64,000 nucleotides of DNA from a virus (taxonomy: Duplodnaviria; Caudoviricetes): the IMG/VR virus record IMGVR_UViG_3300028549_001457, positions 96,001-160,000 of that record. One strand, given 5' to 3'. The notes beneath the pieces are model-generated. The model ran no database searches and was not told where the DNA came from. It saw nothing but the letters and a program-made list of their open reading frames with translations. This document shows, in pieces, positions 7,901 through 19,818 of the stretch; position 1 is the stretch's first letter; the number at the start of each line of letters is the position of its first letter. Made by a program: the position numbers and the translations under genes.

Positions 7901-8004
7901 AACGTAAGGTAGAGGCTTTTGCTAAGTGGCGACTTGAGAACCCCACCGCATGGCCCACACCTGAGCATCTAGAACCCCTCTCTCACAGGACTGTTGATGC
8001 GTAG
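4933..8004 (+). CDS. polA: Family A DNA polymerase with 3'-5' exonuclease and large insertion
   Basis: ExoI FDLETTG, ExoII QNGKFD, ExoIII YAAAD; motif A DYSAIELR, motif B RSMAKTITFGNLYG, motif C HVHDE; exact start uncertain (TTG). Confidence 0.95.
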   Translation: MERFLRVLMQDDGQDVVGVSITSEEAAEALFGELPTQQGAIEDVIMMDWDGSLPEPPIEWMRNHAWRLITSIDELKGWWEAVKADTANHVPTVVDLINKTGKVYPKVGFDLETTGLDNRVVLGQCKTHIVGVCLASYAPNSMAYAVVQTPCMSNPQPVALKQCMGIYIPIAHKGWAYNLDLLEVVAILDDIFKNAIIAAQNGKFDFLSLIANGDLVSRDVPHFNYVERVFERTTIDLPVWPRLEDPQSLIYLIDSDRMKNGGVGLKEMSKSILKQEMIEFEAITSTGVKQKKSKKFILNTFDAVAPFLAVHYAAADAIETLLLTDVLGYIRTQGNGLPFIHQLDTNTINVQTWIEQQRVLVDREYLLNEEQFLGLKCQHTLGLIHSILGAPVNPDSTKILGELLFEKMKLPNKGKTPPSKMFKQGNWKTDKESLEELAKEHPEHAIFDLIVKYRELRNSYPRKLFNGTDPLDSSAKFSFSATRTPSGRFACSGGDFEKDGGAGLNVQAIQALYATRYISVKRLNLEALQGVLGLSTSYAFDPIVFDWLKANTYQYSPVAYPSEDTFLEQLKASAPDTDPASLKSAAKQAVKEELKANKEQGLATLVEGISESVLLNNPTVINGHLKLTPDGWVCMLVDCPQCLHLPEGSPEYYFRERYEYDTSEVMNLRRAFKAAPGWTFFSVDYSAIELRMVANLANETLWVDSFIGGTDLHASMAEACFGDKFRNGDSATKSYLRSMAKTITFGNLYGGTSRTIQQNLSEPIDIHEAKRLYASWIGAIPGYQAWVSYQQAYVNTYGVVFTALGRQRVMLRDLRSGDKGKISYAERTSLNHPAQGTSADILRLSLQRIMQWVLDNGLSDYVKLHFHVHDELDFSVKDEWVPFIVPNILRIMKCDDMVRGYLKWPVGLECDVEYGQSWDVRYKFDKKAWGGISALKEFNQDIFKALFKHISEGNDYSVEDYRNVYLPVIYKTWEAGGYKDPYQDFSKATQRKVEAFAKWRLENPTAWPTPEHLEPLSHRTVDA

Positions 8005-8677
8005 AACTCTAGTAAGTCGTAGATTCCTTTCTCAAGATAAGGCGTGGGTCCCCCCGCAGTCGCTCTCTGAGCTTCACGCCTACGCACCTAATCTGGTGTC
8101 TTCAATTGCGCGGAATGTGCTCCTGGAGCTTCAGCAGGGCAAGCTCCACTACAGTGGTCAGCTAGAAGAGCTTATCTCAGACCTATACCAGGATCTCCTT
8201 GATGGAGAGCGCCTTCGTGCTTTTGACGCCTCAAGATATCCCAAGACTCCAGAGAACGGGTGGAAGGCCTTCATGGTCACGGTTCTTGGGAATTTAACTA
8301 AAAATTGGGTTGCGGCTAAGCACCAAAAACTGCACTTTTGCCCTAGAATCTCTGAAGATCCGCTTCAGCCCAACACCGTTTCCGAGAGGGATCTTCCTCC
8401 TGATTTAGCCGAGAATCCCTATCATATTCTTGAGCGCAGAGAGATATCTCACCGTGCTGAGTCTAAAATGCAGCGGTTTATGGTCTTCATTGAAGACCGC
8501 TGTGGGTGCTCCATTACTTCGAAGGCCATTGAGTTGATGTCCTATGATGGGATGTCCCTTTCTGATGTTCAAAAAGCCTTGGGCCTCTCTGACCAGGAGC
8601 GAGGTATCCTTAAGACTAAAACCCAGGAGTTGTGGTATGTTTTCACTTCTGAAGAGCTAGTTTCCAATAGGGGGTAG
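7994..8677 (+). CDS. Sigma70-like factor (region 2 plus region 4 HTH)
   Basis: LEELISDLYQDLL..FDASR..WKAFM..VLGNLTKNW resembles region 2; GMSLSDVQKALGLS resembles region 4. Confidence 0.6.
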   Translation: MMRRTLVSRRFLSQDKAWVPPQSLSELHAYAPNLVSSIARNVLLELQQGKLHYSGQLEELISDLYQDLLDGERLRAFDASRYPKTPENGWKAFMVTVLGNLTKNWVAAKHQKLHFCPRISEDPLQPNTVSERDLPPDLAENPYHILERREISHRAESKMQRFMVFIEDRCGCSITSKAIELMSYDGMSLSDVQKALGLSDQERGILKTKTQELWYVFTSEELVSNRG

Positions 8678-8747: not shown

Positions 8748-9857
8748 ATGCCAGATACCCCCTTTCTACCTAAATTGAGTCCTGCACCTGGGGATCTTAG
8801 TAGCATGCAAGTGCTAACAGAACTCCCTGAACACTATCTATCTAATGCCTCCGCATCAAATTATGTTGCGCTAGGTGTTATGTATACCCTAATGGGTATG
8901 GCTACTCCAGAGGAGCTTGCTTCTGAAGCGTATCTAGATAAAGTTCTAATGGGTGTCTTTACGGCGCTTAATAACAAGACTGCTGAGCTTCAGCTCCCAG
9001 CTTTTGAGCCACCAACTCCTCTAGGTCACCCCATATCTTCAAAACTAGCTTTCCTAGTTGACTCTCAGATATCTCGCAAGAGTGCCGCCTCCGTTTTGCA
9101 GGCAATCGATCTTAAGTTTATCGTTAACTATATATTTGGAAGACGCGCAATACTTTTAGACCATGTGGGCAGTATCAGAGTGGCGGGTATTGTTAATAAA
9201 TCCATTGATTATCTTCGATCTGAGACTGGGAAAGCCTTTCCAAGTTCAACCGAACAAGGTGGAACCTGGAATTATGATGCAATTACCCGTAAAGCTCTAA
9301 CAGATGCAGGAATCACCGATCATTTCTTTGTTGATGAGTTTGTTGGGTGGATGCTTTTAAATAAACTTCAACCAACATCAGCTTGGGTGCGTGGGTGTGA
9401 TGAAACTAAAGGCCATTTAGGGGATAACTTCAAACGGTTTTTACCCAGGTTCATTTCTGATTTTCGCTCCTATGAGCTGCAGAGGCGCGAAATAGGGTCC
9501 TCATCTACAGATGAATCTGGCAACACGGTTGATTTTTTCGACTCGTATTCGGGGTCTGCGTTCCCTGGGTCTGTAGAATCCATGGACGAAGACAAAATTT
9601 CAGATATTAGGACTATTCTATCTAAATTTAGGGAGTTCCTAGTTGCCAACGCCCATAAGTATCACTCTGACGAGAAGTCTCTCGTTAAGATTTTAGACCT
9701 TCTTCTACAGGGTGTTAGGCCTACAGATATTAAATCCCAGTTGGGCCTCAATCCGGGACCCTACAGTGTGCGACATTCCAAAATCTGCTCAGCGGGACAA
9801 GATTTCAAACAGCGTTTCCCGGAGTTTGCATCTGTTATAGAACCTCTATTGGATTAA
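8748..9857 (+). CDS. Putative second sigma-like/HTH transcription factor
   Basis: Region-2-like FVDEFVGWML..DETKG..FKRFL..FISDF; C-terminal HTH LLLQGVRPTDIKSQLGLN. Confidence 0.4.
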   Translation: MPDTPFLPKLSPAPGDLSSMQVLTELPEHYLSNASASNYVALGVMYTLMGMATPEELASEAYLDKVLMGVFTALNNKTAELQLPAFEPPTPLGHPISSKLAFLVDSQISRKSAASVLQAIDLKFIVNYIFGRRAILLDHVGSIRVAGIVNKSIDYLRSETGKAFPSSTEQGGTWNYDAITRKALTDAGITDHFFVDEFVGWMLLNKLQPTSAWVRGCDETKGHLGDNFKRFLPRFISDFRSYELQRREIGSSSTDESGNTVDFFDSYSGSAFPGSVESMDEDKISDIRTILSKFREFLVANAHKYHSDEKSLVKILDLLLQGVRPTDIKSQLGLNPGPYSVRHSKICSAGQDFKQRFPEFASVIEPLLD

Positions 9858-9908
9858 CTATACCGTATGGACTCTCTTGTGATCATCGTTTTGTAGGAGC
9901 CTTCGTTT

Positions 9909-10115
9909 ATGGCGTCTGGGAATTCTTCTGTTTTAGTAGCACCCAAGAAGTCTGTTAAAGTTGTTGAACCCATTGTTGAGGATCTCCGTAGGTGTTCGCA
10001 CCCTACCTGTAAGAAATGTAGAAAACACATGTCTTGTAGGCAGCAACCTCTAGCGGATGGTAGATGTGTGTCATTTGAGGAGGGATTAGCGTGGGATCAC
10101 ATTTGCAAGACCTAA
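9909..10115 (+). CDS. Small Cys-rich hypothetical protein
   Basis: SD AGGAG; CxxxxCxxC..C..C..C pattern. Confidence 0.6.
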   Translation: MASGNSSVLVAPKKSVKVVEPIVEDLRRCSHPTCKKCRKHMSCRQQPLADGRCVSFEEGLAWDHICKT

Positions 10116-10399
10116 CCCAGGGGCAACAAGTAGCCCTTGCTTACATGTTGATGTTAAGGAACTGTGCTGATGTGTGCTTTTCAGAGGCAGCAAAGCAGGC
10201 TTCACTGAAGGACCCCGAGTTTAGGGCCACACTAGATAATTTAGAGCTTGCTCTTACATATGCCTCTAGTATTTTGACCTCGGAGATATCTTCCAATGAG
10301 TCTTGCAATTCTGCTGATGTATCTATAACTGTTAAGACAATCTCAAAAGCTTTTAATTTGTCTGAAGCTTGTTCGGAACGTATCTTCGAGTTTATTTAA
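10091..10399 (+). CDS. Hypothetical protein
   Basis: 102-aa ORF overlapping the upstream gene; start uncertain. Confidence 0.55.
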   Translation: MGSHLQDLTQGQQVALAYMLMLRNCADVCFSEAAKQASLKDPEFRATLDNLELALTYASSILTSEISSNESCNSADVSITVKTISKAFNLSEACSERIFEFI

Positions 10400-10536
10400 T
10401 GAAGGTGGGGGTCCCAGCAGTTAAATCTAATGAAGACTGCATTGTAGTCTACACTGTGGAGACTCTATCAACCTTCTGTCCCATGATTTATTTCCGAGTT
10501 GATGGACCCGAACACAGACTACGCAGATATTTGTAG
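10399..10536 (+). CDS. Possible 45-aa protein (MKVGVPAVKS...), absent from ORF track
   Basis: TAATG stop-start overlap with upstream gene. Confidence 0.35.
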   Translation: MKVGVPAVKSNEDCIVVYTVETLSTFCPMIYFRVDGPEHRLRRYL

Positions 10537-10628
10537 TTTGCTCATGTGCTCTAGGCTATATTTTTTACGACACGGGTTGGGGTGGCCTAGAGACTCTGAC
10601 TGGGTCCCAAACAACACCATTATTAACC

Positions 10629-10892
10629 TTGAGGTCTAACATTATTTTTGATTCCCACTCCGCTAAATCCGTTCTGTGGTCCATGAAAGGGTTCACGGGG
10701 AAGGGCTCTATCATGAAGATTACTAATGCCGACAGGTCCTACTCACATTACTTTGTGGGCGGTATCCTTGAGGGTAAATTTGTATCTGGCGGTGAAGTAA
10801 CTCCAGAGGTTGCGGGGTGGTTGCTGGTGCATTATCCATTTAGTGAGTCCCCCGATCTCACTTCTAATTATTTGGTTACGTGGGTAATATAG
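10629..10892 (+). CDS. Hypothetical protein
   Basis: ORF filling a gap; true start possibly the ATG at 10682. Confidence 0.5.
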   Translation: MRSNIIFDSHSAKSVLWSMKGFTGKGSIMKITNADRSYSHYFVGGILEGKFVSGGEVTPEVAGWLLVHYPFSESPDLTSNYLVTWVI

Positions 10893-10951
10893 TTATGTGT
10901 TTGTTTTGGGTATTATTTACTTCAGGTATTGACCTTTAAGGGGGCTAAATT

Positions 10952-11341
10952 ATGTATAGCATGGATAAGACCCCCTACGGTTTTTCTATTGTTTTAGCAG
11001 GCAGTTTATCCAAGGAAGACCTTGATGCATGGCTGTCAGAGGTGCTTATGCTAATACCATCCTCCCCCATAGGTGTTAAACTCTTAATTGATGCTACTGA
11101 GTTGAAGCTCATACCTAGAGGGTCAAAACGTGGTTATGAAGAAATACTTCGCTATTTTATTGATAATGGCTTGCAAAGATCCTGTGTGCTTTACTCAACA
11201 GCATCTGTTAGGCTTCAACTGGCTAATATATCCTCCACTATTGGGTTCACGGGTGAGCGCTATCTAAATACCTCTAAGGTAGCCTCCTATAAGCGTTTGT
11301 CGCGTGAGTGGCTTGTTTTTGGCAAAGAACCAAACTTATAA
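10952..11341 (+). CDS. STAS/SEC14 (SpoIIAA-like) domain protein
   Basis: MYSMDKTPYGFSIVLAG..LLIDATELK..NGLQRSCVL..ERY pattern resembles bacterial SpoIIAA-like single-domain proteins. Confidence 0.55.
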   Translation: MYSMDKTPYGFSIVLAGSLSKEDLDAWLSEVLMLIPSSPIGVKLLIDATELKLIPRGSKRGYEEILRYFIDNGLQRSCVLYSTASVRLQLANISSTIGFTGERYLNTSKVASYKRLSREWLVFGKEPNL

Positions 11342-11349
11342 GGAGAAGT

Positions 11350-11676
11350 ATGCTACGCAGAATCGTATTTCCTGAGGCCCTCTCGATTTCTTCTAACGAA
11401 GTGTATCTAGACAATGAGGTGCTACCCTCCGATAAGAGACTCCATTTAATCACAAGTCACCAGATGGAAGACAAACTCTGTGCGTTTATGTCTGATGCTC
11501 TAGGTGCCTCAGTCGAATGGGATAGTGTTGAGATATCAACCAGCGCAGACCTCTTTAGGAGAGATCTCACTTCAGGGACTCTTACAGGTCGTATTACTGC
11601 ACAGGATGTCTTCGGAGAGCCCTTTTCGGCTCAATATGAGATACCCGTGCGCCAAATTGTTGCTATTGCAGTTTGA
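11350..11676 (+). CDS. Hypothetical protein
   Basis: SD AGGAG at 11341 supports ATG 11350 rather than 11308. Confidence 0.65.
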   Translation: MLRRIVFPEALSISSNEVYLDNEVLPSDKRLHLITSHQMEDKLCAFMSDALGASVEWDSVEISTSADLFRRDLTSGTLTGRITAQDVFGEPFSAQYEIPVRQIVAIAV

Positions 11677-11706
11677 TTACTTGTATCTAGGATTAGTGAG
11701 GTTCCC

Positions 11707-12567
11707 ATGAATGTTCTGCTAGATTTCTGGAATAAATTTAGAGTAAAGATAATTTTGATAGCCCTTGCTTCTATTGCTGTAATAGGGGTTTCATACTACA
11801 TCTATGACTTAAGGCATAGGAATACCGCCTTAGCTCAGCAGAACTCAACGCTACAGTCTGAATTTGGTAAGCTCGGTGTTAGCTATAGGGCTCAGGGGGC
11901 TGCATTTAAATCCGAAAAAGAGGCTGAGGCTCAGGCACGTAAACTTTTAGGAGATTCTTTTTCGGATGCCATGGCTAAGTCCAATGCTAATATCCGTGTT
12001 TTATACACTGCCGTGGCGGAAGTCAAGGATGAACTAAAAAAACTCCATGAAATTAGAATTGACCCTGATAGTAATGGGGGATTTGCTAACGCAACTTTAG
12101 AGCAACATCGAACGGGACCTAGTTTATCTAAAGTTTCCCTGACATATGATCCTCTAAATATAGACCCTTCTCTTCGTCTAACGGGTTTCTGGACCTCCTA
12201 CAATGAGGAGTTCACAACTACAGTGGGTGAGTGGGTTAAACAGGATAATGGCTACGTGGCTGGCATTAAGATGCGCCGAAAAGTTTCTAAGCCACTTGGT
12301 AATGGTGCATATACCCTTGTTGGTGAAGAAGATCTCCCCCTGGTTAATGGTGTTGCTAGATATAGCCCCATTGCATTTGGGGGGTCCCAGGCTCTTAGTC
12401 CTGTCCCTCGATTTTCTATTTATGGAGGCGGTGGGTGGGATACTGATAGAAAGAAGGCTGTCCCAGTCCTCGGCATGGATTTTAGGGTGACCACTACAAC
12501 CGGAATTGGAGCCGGGATTGCCGGGAATGTTGTTTTTGGCACTGTATCCTATAGATTTGGTAAATAA
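11707..12567 (+). CDS. Membrane-anchored coiled-coil protein with C-terminal beta-strands (spanin-like candidate)
   Basis: N-terminal TM IILIALASIAVIGVSYYI, coiled coil, Gly/aromatic strands ending VSYRFGK. Confidence 0.5.
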   Translation: MNVLLDFWNKFRVKIILIALASIAVIGVSYYIYDLRHRNTALAQQNSTLQSEFGKLGVSYRAQGAAFKSEKEAEAQARKLLGDSFSDAMAKSNANIRVLYTAVAEVKDELKKLHEIRIDPDSNGGFANATLEQHRTGPSLSKVSLTYDPLNIDPSLRLTGFWTSYNEEFTTTVGEWVKQDNGYVAGIKMRRKVSKPLGNGAYTLVGEEDLPLVNGVARYSPIAFGGSQALSPVPRFSIYGGGGWDTDRKKAVPVLGMDFRVTTTTGIGAGIAGNVVFGTVSYRFGK

Positions 12568-12577
12568 TGGAGGCTTC

Positions 12578-12835
12578 ATGGCTGACCTAACGATTAAGAT
12601 TTCAGATATCTCTTCTAAAAAACCCTGCATTAAACTTATTCATACTGATGACTCTGGTATGGATACCCTGGTGGGGGGGCTTTCTCATTTATGTCTTGAG
12701 GTCGATGCGGATACAAATCTTCTTCAAAACTGTCTTGTGCTTGAGTTTGACCCCCTCTTTTCTGATACGTCTAAACTTATTATTGAGGGTCTTTTGAAGG
12801 ACCTTCCTTTTATTCTAATTAAGAAGCCCGAATAG
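12578..12835 (+). CDS. Hypothetical protein
   Basis: SD GGAGG supports ATG 12578. Confidence 0.65.
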   Translation: MADLTIKISDISSKKPCIKLIHTDDSGMDTLVGGLSHLCLEVDADTNLLQNCLVLEFDPLFSDTSKLIIEGLLKDLPFILIKKPE

Positions 12836-12860
12836 CTAGGCTGTATTATTACCTCTTTTA

Positions 12861-12892
12861 GAACAGGGGCAGAAGGCCCCTGTTCCCTTTTT
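12861..12892 (+). terminator. Hairpin with U-tract abutting the next SD
   Basis: GAACAGGGGC-AGAAG-GCCCCTGTTC then CCTTTTT. Confidence 0.55.
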
Positions 12893-12906
12893 AAGGGGAG
12901 TTATAT

Positions 12907-13401
12907 ATGTGTAGCCTAGAAGAACATATCTACCAAGAACTTAGGGATTCTGTTAAAACAGGGGATCTTTTAGTTTGGGAGGGGACTTCCCTCTTTGCTA
13001 GATTGGTTAGTCTTTTTACTAAATCTAGTTACACCCACGTTGGTCTTGCCTGGGTAGTTGGGGGAAGGGTTCTTATCCTCCAGGCTAACCCTGGAGTCGG
13101 GGTTGAGGTTGCAACTCTTAGTGATAATCTGCCTGTTGTTATATTTAAGAGTCCAACTCCCCTATCTGCAAAAGCTTTAAAGGTAGCTTTAGATCAGCTC
13201 CAGGAGCCCTATTCGTTTATGAACGCCATTCGAGCTGGCTTTGGTCTACGAGTTTCTAATAGAGGCTTCCAGTGTGTCCAGTATGTCCTGAGAGTTTTCA
13301 AAGCTAATAAGCTTAAAATTGATTTGTCCTCCCACACTCCCAAGCAGCTCGTTGAGTTCTTCGAGACCACTCTGCACGTTCAAGGTTTAAAAGTATCTTA
13401 G
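12907..13401 (+). CDS. Permuted papain-like NlpC/P60 amidase (YiiX/YebB family)
   Basis: KTGDLL..YTHVGL (His) precedes YSF..FQCVQYV (Cys), the permuted order. Confidence 0.8.
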   Translation: MCSLEEHIYQELRDSVKTGDLLVWEGTSLFARLVSLFTKSSYTHVGLAWVVGGRVLILQANPGVGVEVATLSDNLPVVIFKSPTPLSAKALKVALDQLQEPYSFMNAIRAGFGLRVSNRGFQCVQYVLRVFKANKLKIDLSSHTPKQLVEFFETTLHVQGLKVS

Positions 13402-13452
13402 ATATTGAATAACATTCAAGCGTATCTTAGGAGGTAGCTCTTTAGAGGTAGC

Positions 13453-14004
13453 TTGATGCTCAGCCCTTCACGAAAAAACCCCCCTGCCCTGGATAAATCC
13501 CCACGGCTTAGGTTTACTTCTAGGTATCCCTTTACCACTTCCTCAGACTTACTGGGAGAGGTTAAGCACCTGGAGAATGAGTTTTTTACACAACCCTGGA
13601 TGGGCGCTAAATTCATTTTAGTGGAAAGCTCTAGGTCCTTTATGTATGTCTTTGAGACTCAGCAAACTCGAGTTTCCGGGCCTGAGGATCTTCAAAGTAT
13701 CGCAGCTATGTACCGAGAGCTTGAAAACAAGTTTAATACAACTATTGCATCTTGCATTATTAATGTGAACGCCATTCCAAAAATGCCCGGTAATGTCGGG
13801 TATATTTTTGGCTATCAAGCTTTATACACCCTAACTCGGCAGGGGAGTTTGTGTGATATTTCTAAGGTATCCTATGATGACTCAAATGGAGCGCCTGAAA
13901 TTATTGAGAGCGAGAGTTCTGCTATGAAAACGGCATGGGAAGAGCGTATAGGTGAGCCTCTTGAGCATTTTATAAAGAGGCTTTTTGTGCCTATTGTAGT
14001 GTGA
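13453..14004 (+). CDS. Hypothetical protein
   Basis: 183-aa ORF; SD-like GAGG upstream. Confidence 0.65.
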   Translation: MMLSPSRKNPPALDKSPRLRFTSRYPFTTSSDLLGEVKHLENEFFTQPWMGAKFILVESSRSFMYVFETQQTRVSGPEDLQSIAAMYRELENKFNTTIASCIINVNAIPKMPGNVGYIFGYQALYTLTRQGSLCDISKVSYDDSNGAPEIIESESSAMKTAWEERIGEPLEHFIKRLFVPIVV

Positions 14005-14041
14005 AGGTGCCTTTCTCTTTTAAAGAGAGGTCAATCAACGA

Positions 14042-14413
14042 ATGAAGAAAATCCTATTGGTAGAAGACAACGTAATGAATCAGGAAGGATTCTTCAGGCT
14101 TTTATCTAAGCGTGGGTATACAGTTGTTGTAGCTACTAGTGGGGAATCTGCAATAACTAAATACAATGAGGATATGCCAGATCTCATTCTCATGGATGTG
14201 AGTCTCCCTGATATGTCCGGTTTTGATGTTACTAGGGTCATACGTTCTCTAGAAGCTAGCGCTTCTAGACCAGCTACCCCTATTATTGCAATTACTGCTC
14301 ATGCAATGGTGCAAGACCGTGTGCATGCAATCGAGGCTGGGTGTACTGACTTTGAGCCAAAACCCATGGAGTTCAAAAGATTATTCCAAAAAATAGCAAA
14401 ATATACCTCCTAA
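14042..14413 (+). CDS. Single-domain response regulator (CheY/DivK-like)
   Basis: ILLVEDN, DLILMD (Asp codon 14195), IIAITAHA, FEPKP; all catalytic positions intact. Confidence 0.95.
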   Translation: MKKILLVEDNVMNQEGFFRLLSKRGYTVVVATSGESAITKYNEDMPDLILMDVSLPDMSGFDVTRVIRSLEASASRPATPIIAITAHAMVQDRVHAIEAGCTDFEPKPMEFKRLFQKIAKYTS

Positions 14414-14458
14414 GTGTATTTCAGATATCGGGGCATCGTATCTTGTTAGGAGGTTTTT

Positions 14459-14914
14459 ATGCTTGAGCGTATCCTGGCGAGGTTGATTAAACCTGGGCAC
14501 CCCAGAGACCTACTTTCGATGATGAAGGTGTGTTCTTCTTTGATGGGTCCCGTGATTGGTTTTTGTATGTGTGTGGCTTATGTAGCTTTGACACGAAATC
14601 TATGGGCATACGTTCCAATGGTGCTTCTAGGTGGTCTGGTTTTAGGTGGGTCACTTGCCCTGAAGCATGAAATTAGGCTACGAAAATCCTACCGATCTGG
14701 CAGAGTAGCACTTCCTCCGCTTCTTGCTGAAGGCGTTGACGCCGCAGAACGTGGTGATGCTGAAAGACTCTATGCTTGTATCCAGGCTAGGGTGGACATT
14801 GTGGCTCTGGATGCACACAGTTTGGCGATATTTGACTGCCTTTTACGTGATACCCTTCATGTGTCCCCTGAACTTAAGGCTGATCTCCTAGCCATTCAGC
14901 AGCGCTCAACCTAG
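14459..14914 (+). CDS. Hypothetical membrane protein (2 TM)
   Basis: SD AGGAGG; two hydrophobic segments. Confidence 0.7.
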   Translation: MLERILARLIKPGHPRDLLSMMKVCSSLMGPVIGFCMCVAYVALTRNLWAYVPMVLLGGLVLGGSLALKHEIRLRKSYRSGRVALPPLLAEGVDAAERGDAERLYACIQARVDIVALDAHSLAIFDCLLRDTLHVSPELKADLLAIQQRST

Positions 14915-14941
14915 AACTTCTCTTGAATAGAGGAGGGTTCT

Positions 14942-15625
14942 GTGGCAGATGTCCTAAGTTTAGTTACAAAGTACTGCCCTAATGCTATGACCTTAATAAA
15001 GGACCCGTCTAAAGTTGTCTCAACTTTGACTAAGATAGGTCCCTCTATTCAAACAGCTTTGAGATTAGATCCAAAGTCTGTTCAGGGAACCTCCAATACG
15101 ATTATCACTAAGGCGGCTGCTGTTGCAGCCAGATCTCAGGATACGGCTGCAAAGGCCATTAAGACTGCCACGCAGGATGTTCAAGAGAGGGCCTTGAAAG
15201 TAGCTAAAGATAAAGCTGATGCTATTAAAAAACAAGCTTTAAACGCAGCATCTACCTCCCTAGCTAAAAATGCAGCACCCCTAATGCAGCAGTATTCTGT
15301 TGCAATGGGGTCTGTAAACTCGCTTAAACAATCAGCTTCCGCTATTGTGGAAGCTACAAGTAGCGTGTTTACAGCTCAGAAACTACTTAAACAGATTAAT
15401 TTTAAACAAGCTAACGCATCCCGAGTTAAGGTCCCATCTGGGGAGACTACTTCTATCCAGGGTAAAATTACTGCGATAAAAGATTTAGCGGAATCACAGA
15501 AGGCTACTTTAGACAAGCTTAAACTTCTAAAAAAAGATGCGGATGTAGCGTCTGAAGCCCTTAAGTCTGCTAAGGAAGCTCTAGAAAAAGCCCAAAAATC
15601 CTCAGCATTAATAAACAAGCAATAA
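14942..15625 (+). CDS. Ala/Lys-rich coiled-coil hypothetical protein
   Basis: SD GAGGAGG; heptad-rich composition. Confidence 0.7.
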   Translation: MADVLSLVTKYCPNAMTLIKDPSKVVSTLTKIGPSIQTALRLDPKSVQGTSNTIITKAAAVAARSQDTAAKAIKTATQDVQERALKVAKDKADAIKKQALNAASTSLAKNAAPLMQQYSVAMGSVNSLKQSASAIVEATSSVFTAQKLLKQINFKQANASRVKVPSGETTSIQGKITAIKDLAESQKATLDKLKLLKKDADVASEALKSAKEALEKAQKSSALINKQ

Positions 15626-15652
15626 ATTTGTGGGACTTGAAATCGTCTTTTT

Positions 15653-17566
15653 GTGAAGAACTTTCAAAGGGGTTCTGTTTTTACGATGGATTCCACATTT
15701 AAAAAATACATGCATATAGACGGGGGCACTCTTAGGATGTCTCTGACAAGCCTTTCTTTGGTGTTGTCTACCCCTCTTGGCGTGGTGGTTATTATTCTTA
15801 GTTATCTCGTTTTTGGGTTAACTCATTGGTTTGTTGGTGTCCTATTAGCTCTGGCCCTTTTTACGCTATTCATGCTAAGAGTTGTGCATGTCCATTTCAG
15901 CAACCCCCTTCTGCGATTTTCTCAAGGTATCCGTGAGTTGGATTCTCAAACCCCTCTAGAGGGGACTTCCTGCCTGGAGTTATCCAAGGTTAATGATTCT
16001 TTCTCTGCCCTAACAACCTCTCTCTATGATAAAGATATACGGGTTTCTAGGACTTTGAATACCCTCGAAGATTTAGTAGCAGAGAGAACGCTTGAGTTGT
16101 TAAAAACAAATACTGAATTGCTACTTGCTAATGAGTTAGCAGAATCCGCTGCACATGCTAAATCGGTTTTTCTCACTCATATGAGTACCTCCCTACGAAC
16201 TCCTCTTAATGGTATCCAAATTTATGCTGAGTTGCTAACAGACGCTCTTCAGGAGCTTCCAGTCTCATCTGATGCCCTTGATGATGTAAAACGAATTCAA
16301 AAATCTGCCGATCAGCTTTTGGAGACTATTGATCGAATACTAGACTATGCTCAAGTTGAAATTGGGCATATTAACATTGAGTCAGATACTATCCTTTTGA
16401 TAGACTTTATTAAAGAATGCGAATCTTTAAGTAGGTCTATGGCTAAAAAAGGTAATAACTGGTTCGACTTAATGTTGTCTCCAAACCTTCCAACATATAT
16501 CTCCACGGACCATAAGAAGCTTAAGCATGTCTTAATATCCTTATTAGATAATGCTAATAAATTTACTCACAAGGGGCATGTCAGACTTCATATAGATGAT
16601 GATGGGGATTTTTTAGTATTTACCATCTCAGATACTGGTGTTGGAATACCCCCAGAAGATCTTAAGAGTATGTTTGTTGAGTTTATTTCCAGCAACAAAA
16701 AGGGTGTGACCTCCCTGGGACTTGGATTAACGCTTACAAAAAAATACTTGGATTTGCTGGGAGGAACCATCTCAGTTAGATCTACCCTAAAACATGGAAC
16801 TGTTTTTACGGTAAAGATACCCAAGCTAGCTAAATATTTGGTTAGAAAGAATTCCTCCACGGTTCTAATTATGCTCCCAGACACCCCTGTGCGTAATGAG
16901 TTGATATCTAAGTTAACTCAGCTAGGGTTATGGACCACTGTAGTGGAGACCTTAGATGAATGTATTAAAATATCAACCTCCTTAGGGCCTCAGACCATTA
17001 TATTGGGTATTACCCGCCCTGAAGATTGGGATACGCTACTGCAACTAGGGAATTCTCTTCCTCAGCGGTGTAGGGTTCTCTGCATACAGTTTGCTGAGGA
17101 TTCAATGGAGGGGTCCATTGTAGAGGTGCGTGAGATTGTTAAAAAGCCCATTAAAAGGGATCATTTAGCGTATGTTCTTAATAGCTACGCGGCTCCCAGA
17201 AAGTCCCCCAGGGTCCTAATAATTGAAGATGATAGAGTTACTGCGTTAGCCCTATCTAGGCAAGTTGAATCGCTTGGTTGGAAAACAACTGTTGTTTTTT
17301 CAGCAGAGGCTGCGCTTCCTCACTTAGAAGTCCCCACCATAGATTTGCTTCCCTCTTTGGTGCTCCTTGATTTAGGGCTACCTGGGATGGGTGGGGCGGA
17401 ATTACTTGAGACACACTCACATATTTTTAGGGACCTACCTGTCGTGGTGGTTACTGGATCTTCCGTGTCAGGGGGTGATTTAGCTAGGATAAATATGTTC
17501 GATACTAAGGTTCCCATATCGGAAATAGCTGTGGGTGTTGCTGCTAAAGTTAGTAGATGGTCCTAG
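15653..17566 (+). CDS. Hybrid sensor histidine kinase-like protein (TM-HAMP-like-HisKA-HATPase-REC-REC) with His to Thr substitution
   Basis: AKSVFLTHMSTSLRTPLN versus consensus AKSxFLANMSHELRTPLN; N box LLDNANKFT, G1 DTGVGI, G2 LGLGL; REC1 IILGI, REC2 IIEDD..LVLLD. Confidence 0.9.
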   Translation: MKNFQRGSVFTMDSTFKKYMHIDGGTLRMSLTSLSLVLSTPLGVVVIILSYLVFGLTHWFVGVLLALALFTLFMLRVVHVHFSNPLLRFSQGIRELDSQTPLEGTSCLELSKVNDSFSALTTSLYDKDIRVSRTLNTLEDLVAERTLELLKTNTELLLANELAESAAHAKSVFLTHMSTSLRTPLNGIQIYAELLTDALQELPVSSDALDDVKRIQKSADQLLETIDRILDYAQVEIGHINIESDTILLIDFIKECESLSRSMAKKGNNWFDLMLSPNLPTYISTDHKKLKHVLISLLDNANKFTHKGHVRLHIDDDGDFLVFTISDTGVGIPPEDLKSMFVEFISSNKKGVTSLGLGLTLTKKYLDLLGGTISVRSTLKHGTVFTVKIPKLAKYLVRKNSSTVLIMLPDTPVRNELISKLTQLGLWTTVVETLDECIKISTSLGPQTIILGITRPEDWDTLLQLGNSLPQRCRVLCIQFAEDSMEGSIVEVREIVKKPIKRDHLAYVLNSYAAPRKSPRVLIIEDDRVTALALSRQVESLGWKTTVVFSAEAALPHLEVPTIDLLPSLVLLDLGLPGMGGAELLETHSHIFRDLPVVVVTGSSVSGGDLARINMFDTKVPISEIAVGVAAKVSRWS

Positions 17567-17628
17567 CCCATCATTTCCCCCTGTATTACTACTGGGTGGG
17601 CTAGCTCAAGTTCAGTCCGCTGGCATGG

Positions 17629-18189
17629 GTGCATATGAGTCTACCTTTAGAGATCCTTCTCGGGCATGTGCCCGTCTTCACGTTTGAAGATCAGACTTGT
17701 GGGCTCTGCCTCTTAGCCTCTCAGCTACGGGACTCCTTTTTTGAGCTACAACGCGAAGAGGCTGGCCCTAGCCTAGCTATTGTGACAAAAAATTGCTCTC
17801 CCGCACGTATTATATCTGAGTGTATCCCTGAGTTGCCAGTTGAAGGTCTTGGGGATTCAGAGAATTATGTGGTCACTATTTTGGCGAGTGCTGCTTTTAC
17901 TGGGTATGTTCAGAGAACCCTCTTTGAAATCTGGGCTCGGATAGAGGTAGGGAAAGAAGTTCCAGATCTCATTGGAGGAATCCTGACGATAGAGGGGGTT
18001 TATAAAGGATCTAAAAAGGCACTCTACCAAGTGATTAAGCTGGAAAATGGGTGGGCTCAATATCGTGTGCATCCATTTTCAAGGGATGATTCTGGGGTGG
18101 CGTCTTTGGTTGGGACCCCAATTGTTGAGGGGACTGAAGATGGTCCCCTTGACTTTACAGCATTTCTTGAAAATAATATAAATGGCTGA
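17629..18189 (+). CDS. Hypothetical protein
   Basis: 186-aa ORF. Confidence 0.65.
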   Translation: MHMSLPLEILLGHVPVFTFEDQTCGLCLLASQLRDSFFELQREEAGPSLAIVTKNCSPARIISECIPELPVEGLGDSENYVVTILASAAFTGYVQRTLFEIWARIEVGKEVPDLIGGILTIEGVYKGSKKALYQVIKLENGWAQYRVHPFSRDDSGVASLVGTPIVEGTEDGPLDFTAFLENNING

Positions 18190-18358
18190 CACCATTGTAG
18201 TTACTCTAAATATTCGTGCTCACCAAACTTCATGTTTCTCCTTTGGTAGGCTCGGTTTTTCCGACATCATTGCAGGTAGTTTTTTGTGTCTCTCAGTCTC
18301 ACGAATCTTCTTACAAGTTTGTTACCATGGCGCGGCCATGTCTGAGGTTCTACCCTAA
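18182..18358 (+). CDS. Possible 58-aa protein (MADTIVVTLN...), absent from ORF track
   Basis: 8-nt overlap with the upstream stop; fills the gap. Confidence 0.35.
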   Translation: MADTIVVTLNIRAHQTSCFSFGRLGFSDIIAGSFLCLSVSRIFLQVCYHGAAMSEVLP

Positions 18359-18402
18359 CTTAAATTTAACATTAATAAAACTTCTATTTATAGGAGCTAT
18401 CC

Positions 18403-19002
18403 GTGCTATCTGTCCTTGAATCTACTGGTGTGAATACTTCCACGGCAACTTTATCCGTAGATATTCAAGAATTAACCGGAACTAAAAATGGGCACTCCGT
18501 TTCGTTTCTCCCCAGATCCTCTTTCCAAACTCAGGGACTTGGGGTCCCCGTTGCAACTGTTGAGCCCGTTGCAACTGCTAACCCAGTAGCCCCTGAGCCA
18601 ACTCCCCTGAAGAAGCTCCCTAATAGGCGAGGTGGGTTCAACCAAGTTTTAAAGATGTCCGATGGGATGAAACTCTATCTTAGAACCGGGGAATTCGCAG
18701 ATGGCTCCCTTGGTGAAATCTTCGTAGATACCCAAAAAGAGGGAACCTTTGCTAGGTCAATGTTAAACTGTTTTGCCGTTGCGATTTCTACGGGACTCCA
18801 GCATGGTGTTCCTCTGAGTGTTTTTGTGGACCAGTTTAAGACTGTTATGTTTGAGCCGAAAGGCCCCGTTAGCGGTTCAGATGTTGTTTTTGAGGCTACG
18901 TCCATTATTGATGCCCTTTTTAAGGAATTAGATGCCGCCTACCCTGACGGGGTGGCCCCCATTCCGGCTCCCGTTCGGTCCCCAGTCAAGCAGAATATGT
19001 GA
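18403..19002 (+). CDS. Stand-alone class II ribonucleotide reductase C-terminal (TSCPD-like) domain
   Basis: KLPNRRGG..KLYLRTGEFADGSLGEIFVD..KEG..AISTGLQHGVPL..FEPKG..ATSIIDALFKEL. Confidence 0.8.
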   Translation: MLSVLESTGVNTSTATLSVDIQELTGTKNGHSVSFLPRSSFQTQGLGVPVATVEPVATANPVAPEPTPLKKLPNRRGGFNQVLKMSDGMKLYLRTGEFADGSLGEIFVDTQKEGTFARSMLNCFAVAISTGLQHGVPLSVFVDQFKTVMFEPKGPVSGSDVVFEATSIIDALFKELDAAYPDGVAPIPAPVRSPVKQNM

Positions 19003-19014
19003 ATTTAGTTCTTT

Positions 19015-19026
19015 CCTTTATATAGG
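19015..19026 (+). promoter_or_regulatory. Candidate late promoter motif CCTTTATATAGG
   Basis: TTTATATAG recurs at 24254 and 60046 upstream of fibre genes. Confidence 0.4.
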
Positions 19027-19095
19027 ATTGTCTTAATACGGTCCTTTTAACAAGTCCAACGGTGCAACGCACCCACAATTTAGGAGTTCTTTTCC

Positions 19096-19818
19096 ATGAG
19101 TGAACTAAATCGTCTTCTTCGTCAAGCTGCGCGTATTACGGCTGGGGTCTCCCCCAACACTGATAGATCCGTTGAGGATCACAAGGATGATGCGTCTTAT
19201 GTAACGGCTTTGGCTACTGAAAAAAAAGCTTCTCTAAAGAAGGCCGATGCTGACCCCAACACGGATCAGGCTGAGGAAGATCACAAGGGTGACGCCGCAT
19301 ACGAGACAGCTCTTAACCCAAAGGTTGGCTCTAAGCGTAAGTTAGCTGAATTTTCTGCCCCAGAGCCTGAAGAAGAGGTGTCTGAGGCTCTTGACGCTGA
19401 AACTTCTGAGGAGGACACCCCCCAGGAAGATGTCATCGAATCCGTTACCAATGCCGACCTAGTGGAAGCTCTTGAGGATGTCAAGCAGGGTGTTATGGAT
19501 GCTCAGGAAGAAGCTGGGGAAGGCCCCGCCGCAGACCTCCTAGCGGCAATCCATGAAATTATTGAGGCCGTTGATGCCATTCAGGATGCTGTTTCTGTTG
19601 ATGCAATGAACGACCCCGCCGCTGAAGAGGCTTTTAAAACCGCCTCAAATTTCAAGAAATTCTTCATTAATGAGAGGAACATTAAGGCTGCTAAGGTTAT
19701 CCGCCAGAAGTTAGCCGCTCATCAGGCCGCTACCGCTAAGGCACCCGCTCCCAAAAAGGCTTCTGTTAAGAAGGCATTTGACCCGGCTGTCCTCGCACGA
19801 GCTACCAAAAAGAACTAA
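19096..19818 (+). CDS. Acidic/low-complexity putative head or scaffold protein
   Basis: SD AGGAG; duplicated PNTD..EDHK.DA.Y.TAL motif; acidic core, basic tail. Confidence 0.55.
   Translation: MSELNRLLRQAARITAGVSPNTDRSVEDHKDDASYVTALATEKKASLKKADADPNTDQAEEDHKGDAAYETALNPKVGSKRKLAEFSAPEPEEEVSEALDAETSEEDTPQEDVIESVTNADLVEALEDVKQGVMDAQEEAGEGPAADLLAAIHEIIEAVDAIQDAVSVDAMNDPAAEEAFKTASNFKKFFINERNIKAAKVIRQKLAAHQAATAKAPAPKKASVKKAFDPAVLARATKKN

Follow-up and report, generated by a model that had tools for sequence, protein, structure and literature searches.

Two-component signaling is treated as a cellular trait, and copies found in phages are usually dismissed as host carry-over or contamination. What would a phage do with an intact receiver kept beside a kinase whose phospho-acceptor histidine is gone? 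The question is raised by a 64,000-nucleotide stretch of DNA (hereafter the window) covering positions 96001-160000 of a 278,785-bp IMG/VR record (IMGVR_UViG_3300028549_001457), an uncultured phage from microbial mats whose genome is 95% complete by CheckV. An earlier note on this DNA had drawn attention to a SpoIIAA-like protein, a single-domain receiver and a degenerate hybrid kinase lying within 6.6 kb of one another, and had read them as a captured and domesticated phosphorelay module that drains or rewires host signaling. We find that the receiver, here called REC1, and the selectively disabled kinase, here called the pseudokinase, have been held together through the deep divergence of a large-phage clade. 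The reading we favor, with a confidence a little short of even, is that they form a long-owned signaling pair in which the kinase, by analogy with Caulobacter DivL, binds the receiver instead of phosphorylating it.

The lone receiver and the histidine-less kinase

REC1 matches the receiver family PF00072 at an E value of 7e-27 (94.2 bits, against a cut-off of 30.2), and the domain fills residues 4-118 of its 123 amino acids, with no output domain. Its active site is complete (E8, D9, D52, T85 and K107-P108), and E8, D9, D52 and K107 are invariant, T85 nearly so, across 10 aligned orthologs and close homologs. The earlier description of an intact single-domain receiver is thus borne out, down to the D52 codon, which starts at position 14195. 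Orthologs in the related contigs L010, L013 and L016 are 54-58% identical to REC1. Similar identity (50-58%) links REC1 to the lone receivers of bacteria, a very large family with thousands of members, many of which are named DivK or CheY-like by the Joint Genome Institute (JGI). This automatic DivK name extends to homologs in Holophaga (Acidobacteriota), and the one bacterial context in which a REC1-type receiver was seen with an adjacent kinase is an operon encoding a YfiR-like protein and a CHASE8 kinase, not the DivJ/PleC system.

The pseudokinase is a degenerate hybrid kinase, as had been proposed. It matches HisKA (PF00512; 5e-13, 49 bits), HATPase_c (PF02518; 1e-23, 84 bits) and Response_reg (2e-9), and its layout comprises a membrane hairpin, a HAMP-like linker, a dimerization and histidine-phosphotransfer (DHp) domain, a catalytic and ATP-binding (CA) domain, a pseudo-receiver and a terminal receiver. 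The hairpin consists of two adjacent hydrophobic segments joined by a loop of ~5 residues, and no CHASE8, PAS or GAF sensor domain was matched in the window kinase, whereas CHASE8 is present in its bacterial relatives and in a second kinase of the same phage. Where 38 of 39 aligned homologs have the H-box MSHE[LF]RTPL, the pseudokinase has FLTHMSTSLRTPLN: the phospho-acceptor histidine is replaced by Thr179 and the catalytic glutamate by Ser180 (codons 16187-16192). In the CA domain, the N-box (N300) and the G1 box (DTGVGI, D327) remain, but the ATP lid has lost 3 residues, and TSLGLGL stands in place of GGTGLGL as the G2 box (residues 353-359). The first receiver-like domain has no acidic pair and carries G452 in place of its aspartate; the terminal receiver keeps E525, D526, D573 and T601.

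These losses are shared by related phages. HMMER, run exhaustively over 1.84 billion representative proteins, returned three full-length orthologs of the kinase (P0245, 43% identity; P0246, 41%; P0247, 39%), followed by ordinary bacterial kinases at no more than 36%; identity to any bacterial kinase is only 31-36%. Across six orthologs, the histidine position reads T, S, S, A, S, S and the glutamate position S, S, M, S, S, S. Every ortholog that reaches the relevant region has a short lid (3-5 residues fewer) and a degenerate G2 box that has lost its first glycines, and the aspartate of the first receiver-like domain is likewise missing in each one that extends to it, while the aspartate of the terminal receiver is kept in three of four (P0001, P0245 and P0246). 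Among the 161 nearest homologs, 154 have H[ED], and other residues stand there only in the five phage-clade sequences of that set. In a maximum-likelihood tree built on the DHp-CA core, the five phage sequences included group in a single clade with 100 support, whose stem measures 1.3 substitutions per site and which stands apart from the phage's own intact kinase.

Three candidate explanations or relatives were set aside. The pseudokinase did not arise by recent duplication of the phage's intact kinase, to which it is 30% identical and which is not its sister in the tree. Nor is there support for His176 as a shifted phospho-acceptor: this position is histidine in three orthologs, asparagine in two and glutamine in one. 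A 568-aa sensor kinase on a short metagenome contig (L068:1138-2844) has a large extracytoplasmic domain. Though it carries the same changes of histidine to serine and glutamate to serine (FLANMSSSMRTPL) and a degenerate G2 box, it is unrelated to the clade and points to an independent loss.

Conservation within the pseudokinase is selective. DHp helix 1 is the best-kept part of the kinase: identity of the window protein to that of L016 is 72% there, 43% in the CA domain and 22% in the membrane part. The pattern indicates purifying selection on a docking and dimerization helix that has no histidine, and not decay. Decay had been named as a threat to the earlier interpretation; it is contradicted by open frames, preserved gene order, the conservation of the DHp helix and the absence of the histidine from every ortholog. 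The other copies found were either 100% identical to the window or too diverged for an estimate of synonymous divergence. A comparison with related phages, which the note had suggested, showed order and open frames kept in four or five diverged lineages, and the order 182-aa protein, receiver, two-helix membrane protein, coiled-coil protein, pseudokinase is common to L010, to L016 and L059, and to the contig encoding P0246.

Could the genes be bacterial DNA joined to a phage by misassembly? The stretch was rebuilt independently, with 100% identity, as 150-kb and 3.6-kb contigs from two other JGI samples; the assemblies L011 and L012 are 100% identical, and mat metagenome runs from four studies hold identical fragments. 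Contigs from four mat runs placed on positions 10900-17700 as a check for strain variants were all identical. The GC content of the locus and its flanks is 43-47%, with no step. Other genes of the window encode a DnaB-like helicase, an A-family DNA polymerase, a UvsX-like recombinase, a sliding-clamp-like protein, GroEL and several tail-fiber proteins, and every open reading frame of at least 200 aa lies on the + strand, save one inside a longer + strand gene. Because independent assemblies and mat fragments are identical, phage genes surround the locus and GC is even, we conclude that the stretch is phage DNA; together with the gene order kept in diverged related contigs, the identical assemblies exclude a bacterial chimera. 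The three proteins that the earlier note described as a signaling island are present in phage DNA, but the idea of a recent insert does not fit the uniform GC content or a block ancestral to the phage clade.

Related loci came from protein look-ups and from searches with an alignment of the pseudokinase; when the query was one protein, or a small alignment of the STAS-fold or 286-aa proteins encoded nearby, no relatives were returned from viral or metagenome contigs. GenBank phages gave no DNA match to positions 10900-17700, and protein searches against them gave only matches of at most 40% identity, mostly to unannotated, metagenomic or bacterial-named records. No RNA dataset is listed as carrying the stretch or the kinase gene.

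Bacterial ancestry and the other signaling genes of the phage

An 800-kb bacterial contig (L021) carries a gene for a DUF4154 (YfiR-like) protein, a 773-aa kinase of CHASE8-HAMP-HisKA-HATPase-REC architecture and then, directly, a lone receiver that is 54% identical to REC1. This kinase groups (99% support) with P0002 and P0251, the best bacterial matches of the pseudokinase, and these bacterial relatives have the same HisKA-HATPase-REC-REC layout with both aspartates intact. Receivers of this type had been said to sit commonly beside HisKA-HATPase-REC-REC kinases; this is so in L021 but not in L020, where there is no adjacent kinase. To judge from homology and the tree, REC1 and the pseudokinase descend from an operon type encoding a YfiR-like protein, a CHASE8 kinase and a lone receiver. 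That bacterial origin, along with the gene order, open frames and selective conservation long kept in phages, agrees with the earlier view of the genes as captured and domesticated.

The bacterial operons resemble the phage locus in their ancestral gene set and in the HisKA-HATPase-REC-REC architecture. The phage locus differs in that it has no YfiR-like gene, no CHASE8 or other sensor and no histidine, and in that the receiver comes first, with two unrelated genes between it and the kinase. YfiR is known from the YfiBNR cyclic di-GMP system (PMC3375315); we found no characterization in the literature of the bacterial operons that combine YfiR-like proteins, CHASE8 kinases and receivers.

Elsewhere in its genome, the phage encodes a second signaling set that looks much like the bacterial one (genome 205762-208089; L017:1763-4090). 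It comprises a secreted DUF4154 (YfiR-like) protein (6e-18), a CHASE8-HisKA-HATPase kinase (CHASE8, 2e-11) in which the MSHELRTPL motif, GGTGLGL and every other ATP-binding box are intact, and a 120-aa receiver (REC2; 1e-25) whose gene overlaps the end of the kinase gene. From its motifs, this set is apparently fully functional. REC1 and REC2 are 44% identical, less than REC1 is to bacterial receivers, and are therefore not recent duplicates. A GIY-YIG nuclease domain (PF01541, 9e-16) is fused in frame to an intact receiver (PF00072, 2e-16) at genome 274169-274777 (L018:1170-1778), making this protein a candidate phosphorylation-gated nuclease. The 279-kb genome encodes no receiver with a DNA-binding domain, and its sole match to the HPt family (PF01627, E 0.04) contains a stop codon. 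A weak second DUF4154/YfiR-like match lies at genome 27755-27955 (E 4e-4, below the cut-off).

Kinase genes recur in large viruses, as far as contigs classed as viral can tell. The brown-alga virus EsV-1 has hybrid kinases. PHROG includes kinase families (phrog_20458, phrog_857 and phrog_731), and HisKA kinases are encoded on 36 IMG/VR contigs (L023-L058), among them giant-virus metagenome-assembled genomes and 314-367-kb phage contigs. These proteins share with the window kinase their virus-borne HisKA, HATPase and REC domains, but all 36 keep the histidine (MSH[ED]IRTP or MSHELRTP), and at 25-39% identity they are not closely related to it; only in this phage clade is the loss of the histidine conserved, together with the pairing with a lone receiver. 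A survey of jumbo phages treats no more than a divergent "cREC" domain, which lies outside kinase systems (PMC7824862), and we found no paper on the role of two-component genes in large phages. Virus-borne kinases as sequences, and pseudokinase-receiver pairing as a kind, are already known. What is new is that a phage clade has conserved a hybrid kinase with neither sensor nor histidine beside an intact lone receiver, and that the same phage carries a sensor kinase set that looks functional.

How the pair might work

Our preferred reading rests on what the kinase has lost and what it has kept. It has shed the periplasmic sensor, the histidine, the adjoining catalytic acid, part of the ATP lid and the aspartate of its first receiver domain, and has retained the membrane anchor, the DHp helix that forms the receiver-docking surface and, in most orthologs, a phosphorylatable terminal receiver. 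Because catalytic parts are gone while anchor, docking helix and terminal receiver remain, we propose a DivL-like protein that would sense phosphorylated REC1, hold it at the membrane or buffer it. The phosphate donor would most likely be the intact CHASE8 kinase that the phage itself encodes (genome 206-208 kb), host kinases belonging to that family, or the two together. To go by their conserved adjacency, the two-helix membrane protein, the coiled-coil protein and the 182-aa protein are probably part of the same unit.

DivL is a kinase whose histidine has been replaced; it binds phosphorylated DivK through the receiver-docking interface and has neither kinase nor phosphatase activity (PMC4211667). 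The likeness lies in a HisKA-type kinase body without histidine, accompanied by an intact lone receiver, with the DHp docking surface conserved; many close REC1 homologs are moreover named DivK by JGI. The proposed logic is also alike, in that a kinase core would be reused as a module for receiver-binding input. The differences are several: DivL has tyrosine at the histidine position, where the phage protein has threonine, serine or alanine, and the phage protein, unlike DivL, has no sensor domain, carries a C-terminal pseudo-receiver and receiver, is of CHASE8-type kinase descent and is encoded by a phage, and its binding is predicted only.

Structure prediction lends weak support to docking. 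A modeled complex of the DHp-CA dimer with REC1 scored 0.50 (three runs, 0.48-0.52), against 0.00 for the best of 3 controls; at least 71% of contacts recur between runs, and the predicted local distance difference test (pLDDT) of the partner is at least 83. In calibration, the mark was reached by 58 of 80 solved complexes and by 2 of 110 mismatched pairs, but at scores of 0.60 or below only 7 of the 80 solved complexes passed, and both of the mismatches that passed fall in this range. Kinase-receiver complexes have been solved, and the predictor may owe its pass to these structures.

Several observations weigh against a DivL-like pair. A complex score of this size is expected for almost any kinase and receiver, and sequence alone would fit REC1 pairing with the pseudokinase, with the phage's intact kinase or with a host kinase. 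REC1 is kept in the L013 lineage, which has no kinase at the corresponding position, so the receiver has no strict need of the pseudokinase. In DivL, PAS domains contribute to specificity, and the pseudokinase has none. In the terminal receiver, the lysine is not conserved, and the ortholog P0247 lacks the aspartate.

Lone receivers acting as phosphate sinks are established biology, and the pair could, as the earlier note proposed, be aimed at the host. REC1 would then drain phosphate from host kinases of the CHASE8 type or from other hybrid kinases, and the pseudokinase would dock host regulators or form mixed dimers, silencing an envelope-stress or defense pathway. We regard such a decoy or sink as being on the unlikely side. 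The 50-58% identity of REC1 to a large bacterial family makes cross-talk with host kinases plausible, the DHp docking helix is conserved without its histidine, and a genome with neither HPt protein nor DNA-binding regulator would need the host for any transcriptional output. Against this, the phage owns a complete set of sensor, kinase and receiver, so a host source of phosphate is not required, and a pseudokinase on a long branch, 31-36% identical to bacterial kinases, is a poor fit to mimicry of one current host protein.

Because the phage has an intact CHASE8 kinase, a YfiR-like partner, a lone receiver and a GIY-YIG-receiver fusion, we consider a circuit of the phage's own no less likely than action directed at the host. 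In its fullest form, which we consider rather unlikely, the phage would run its own multi-branch phosphorelay: the CHASE8 kinase and its periplasmic YfiR-like partner would read the host envelope and phosphorylate REC1, REC2, the terminal receiver of the pseudokinase and the receiver fused to GIY-YIG, with the pseudokinase as a DivL-like reader, and the output would time events such as host DNA degradation or lysis to suit the condition of the host. More generally, the gene content suggests that these large phages run or tap a signaling circuit during infection. If the parts do work together, phages would sense and compute with phosphorylation while infecting, a virus-encoded two-component decision circuit of a kind not described before. 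The pseudokinase would in that case be a second, independent instance of a kinase turned into a receiver sensor, so far exemplified mainly by Caulobacter DivL. As a compact object free of sensor domains, it also lends itself to study of the role of a His-less DHp domain.

A dedicated phosphatase is a further, improbable, alternative to the DivL-like pair. On this account, only the phosphatase half of a bifunctional HisKA kinase would survive in the His-less protein, which would reset a phosphorylated receiver, be it REC1 or some other, at the membrane. Kinase activity of HisKA proteins depends on the acidic residue beside the histidine, and phosphatase activity on a threonine or asparagine (PMC3510030); in the phage clade, the threonine of the H-E-x-x-T motif is kept in six of six orthologs while the kinase-specific residues are lost. 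However, the chemistry of the histidine itself contributes to phosphatase activity in HK853 and EnvZ (PMC7005713), and this activity is absent from DivL, which has been studied more than any other His-less kinase (PMC4211667). In the phage proteins, moreover, the lid over the nucleotide, often an aid to this activity, is degenerate.

The surrounding gene block and the STAS-fold protein

The features of the block are listed below.

Features of the gene block around REC1 and the pseudokinase, in window coordinates.
Feature	Position	Strand	Basis
STAS/SpoIIAA-fold protein, 129 aa (predicted fold)	10952..11341	+	fold models; no Pfam match
Conserved 286-aa protein: one N-terminal membrane helix (residues 15-33), coiled coil, Gly-rich beta-type C-terminus	11707..12567	+	
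Terminator-like hairpin, 10-bp stem with 7 G-C pairs, then T run	12861..12885	+	consensus scan only
Permuted papain-like (Peptidase_C92 / YiiX-like) protein, 164 aa	12907..13401	+	PF05708 E 1.2e-4, below family cut-off; phrog_1128 3e-11
Conserved 182-aa protein directly upstream of receiver	13456..14004	+	same place in L010, L016, P0246 contig
Intact single-domain receiver (REC1), 123 aa	14042..14413	+	PF00072
Conserved 151-aa protein, two predicted membrane helices (residues 21-46, 50-68)	14459..14914	+	30-37% identity in L010, L016, L059
Conserved 227-aa Ala/Lys/Gln-rich helical (coiled-coil type) protein directly upstream of kinase	14942..15625	+	38-42% identity in L010, L016, L059
His-less hybrid kinase (pseudokinase), 637 aa	15653..17566	+	HisKA, HATPase_c, Response_reg

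From REC1 to the kinase, the genes are separated by gaps of 27-45 bp. The hairpin is the sole strong site of its type in positions 9800-19200; it stands between an 85-aa gene and the C92 peptidase-like gene and, as a predicted terminator, divides the block containing the STAS-fold gene from that containing the receiver. L010 (10.5 kb) preserves, in the same order, the DNA polymerase gene (61% identity), the next two genes, and those for the STAS-fold protein (50%), the 286-aa protein (53%), the 182-aa protein (38%), the receiver (56%), the two-helix membrane protein (30%), the coiled-coil protein (42%) and the start of the kinase (38%). The same order is found in L016 (13 kb); L059 is the same phage as L016 from another data set (99.96% DNA identity). 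On the 48.8-kb contig encoding P0246, the order is 178 aa, receiver, 162 aa, 410 aa, kinase and 178 aa, with a TSCPD-domain gene further on; the 410-aa protein takes the position of the coiled-coil protein of the window. In L013, L014 and L015, the genes for the STAS-fold protein (29%), the 286-aa protein and the receiver (58%) are kept, and the place of the kinase is taken by other genes, including one for an AAA_5 ATPase.

The C92 peptidase-like gene and the preceding 85-aa gene have no counterpart in L010, L013 or L016 and are therefore not core; the former looks like a lineage-specific insertion into the conserved block. The 286-aa protein is 45-53% identical in L010, L013, L015 and L016, and its best family lead is a weak one to Rz-like spanins (E 0.008). 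The 182-aa protein is 38% identical in L010 and L016, and a protein of the same size occupies its position in L013, L015 and the P0246 contig; leads from a feature search of the ESM Atlas are weak (KaiC/Rad51/ELP6-like, scores 0.85-0.88) and come with a poor model (pLDDT 0.35). No family match was found for the coiled-coil protein. Pfam searches at E<5 with the 108-, 286-, 182-, 151- and 227-aa proteins gave only noise, and profiles of the 227-aa and 369-aa families retrieved nothing meaningful from PDB sequences.

What of the SpoIIAA-like protein with which the block begins? No Pfam or PHROG model recognizes it, even at E<5, and PF01740 is not found there at E<=1. Two models nevertheless support the fold that the earlier note had assigned. 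The Atlas model has a predicted template-modeling score of 0.89 and matches SpoIIAA-like clusters at template-modeling (TM) scores of 0.84-0.96; on the cluster matched at 0.84, PF11964 is annotated for 32% of members. An AlphaFold2 model built from six orthologs (pLDDT 89) retrieves SLC26 STAS domains, 2q3l, SpoIIAA, RsbV and RsbS from the PDB with Foldseek (E 1e-4 to 1e-2, TM 0.53-0.62, probability 1.00). The DUF3478 structure 2q3l matches at E 4e-4 and TM 0.62, although Pfam gives no PF11964 match. As modeled, the protein has a divergent STAS/SpoIIAA fold, closest to DUF3478/PF11964. It shares this fold with STAS and SpoIIAA-like proteins (PF01740; PF11964) but has no conserved phospho-serine: orthologs in related contigs are 29-54% identical, and a serine stands at the expected phosphorylation site, the start of helix 2, in only two of the four close ones. 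A canonical STAS protein is encoded elsewhere (genome 582-938; L019:582-938; PF01740, 8e-20), with a Kelch-repeat protein 3 kb downstream and no SpoIIAB-type kinase for it in the genome.

Directly after the DNA polymerase gene, the window encodes a 227-aa protein (7994-8677) that is kept in L010, L013 and L016. Its Atlas features score 0.96-0.97 against clusters with Sigma70_r2, r4 or ECF (extracytoplasmic function) domains, and an ortholog has a Sigma70_r2 match at E 0.029. Sigma factors make up nearly all of the 50 best Foldseek matches to a modest AlphaFold2 model of the protein (pLDDT 68), none at E <0.04. It is probably a divergent factor of the sigma-70/ECF type. In a 348-aa frame elsewhere, a Sigma70_r4 match above the family cut-off (genome 213651-213791, E 5e-6) points to a further sigma-type factor.

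Partner switching would tie these genes together: the STAS-fold protein would bind the CA domain of the pseudokinase, as SpoIIAA binds SpoIIAB, and so control the sigma-like factor. All of these genes lie in one conserved block, the models bear out the STAS fold, and the only HATPase_c_2-like match in the genome is the CA domain of the pseudokinase (E 2.6e-5, below the family cut-off). We nonetheless hold this scheme to be very improbable, given that the phospho-serine position is not conserved, that the genome has no PP2C/SpoIIE phosphatase, that the terminator-like hairpin separates the gene groups and that the STAS-fold gene is kept in L013 without the kinase. The same points, with a distance of 2.7 kb to the receiver and the absence from the genome of a partner kinase, speak against the earlier grouping of this protein with the receiver and the kinase in one unit. 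The STAS-fold protein is most likely a separate regulator in a neighboring transcription unit, 2.3 kb downstream of the sigma-like gene.

That the genes are non-functional remnants of captured bacterial genes, or an artifact of assembly, is barely credible: many catalytic motifs of the kinase are degenerate, but frames stay open and synteny holds across lineages sharing only 38-58% protein identity, degeneration is selective in sparing the DHp helix and receiver residues, and the DNA is identical in independent assemblies and in the mat runs of four studies, with uniform GC.

Downstream of the pseudokinase, the window encodes a TSCPD-domain protein (18403-19002; PF12637, 9e-11) that is kept in the P0246 contig too, where further downstream genes match those of the window in size and order.

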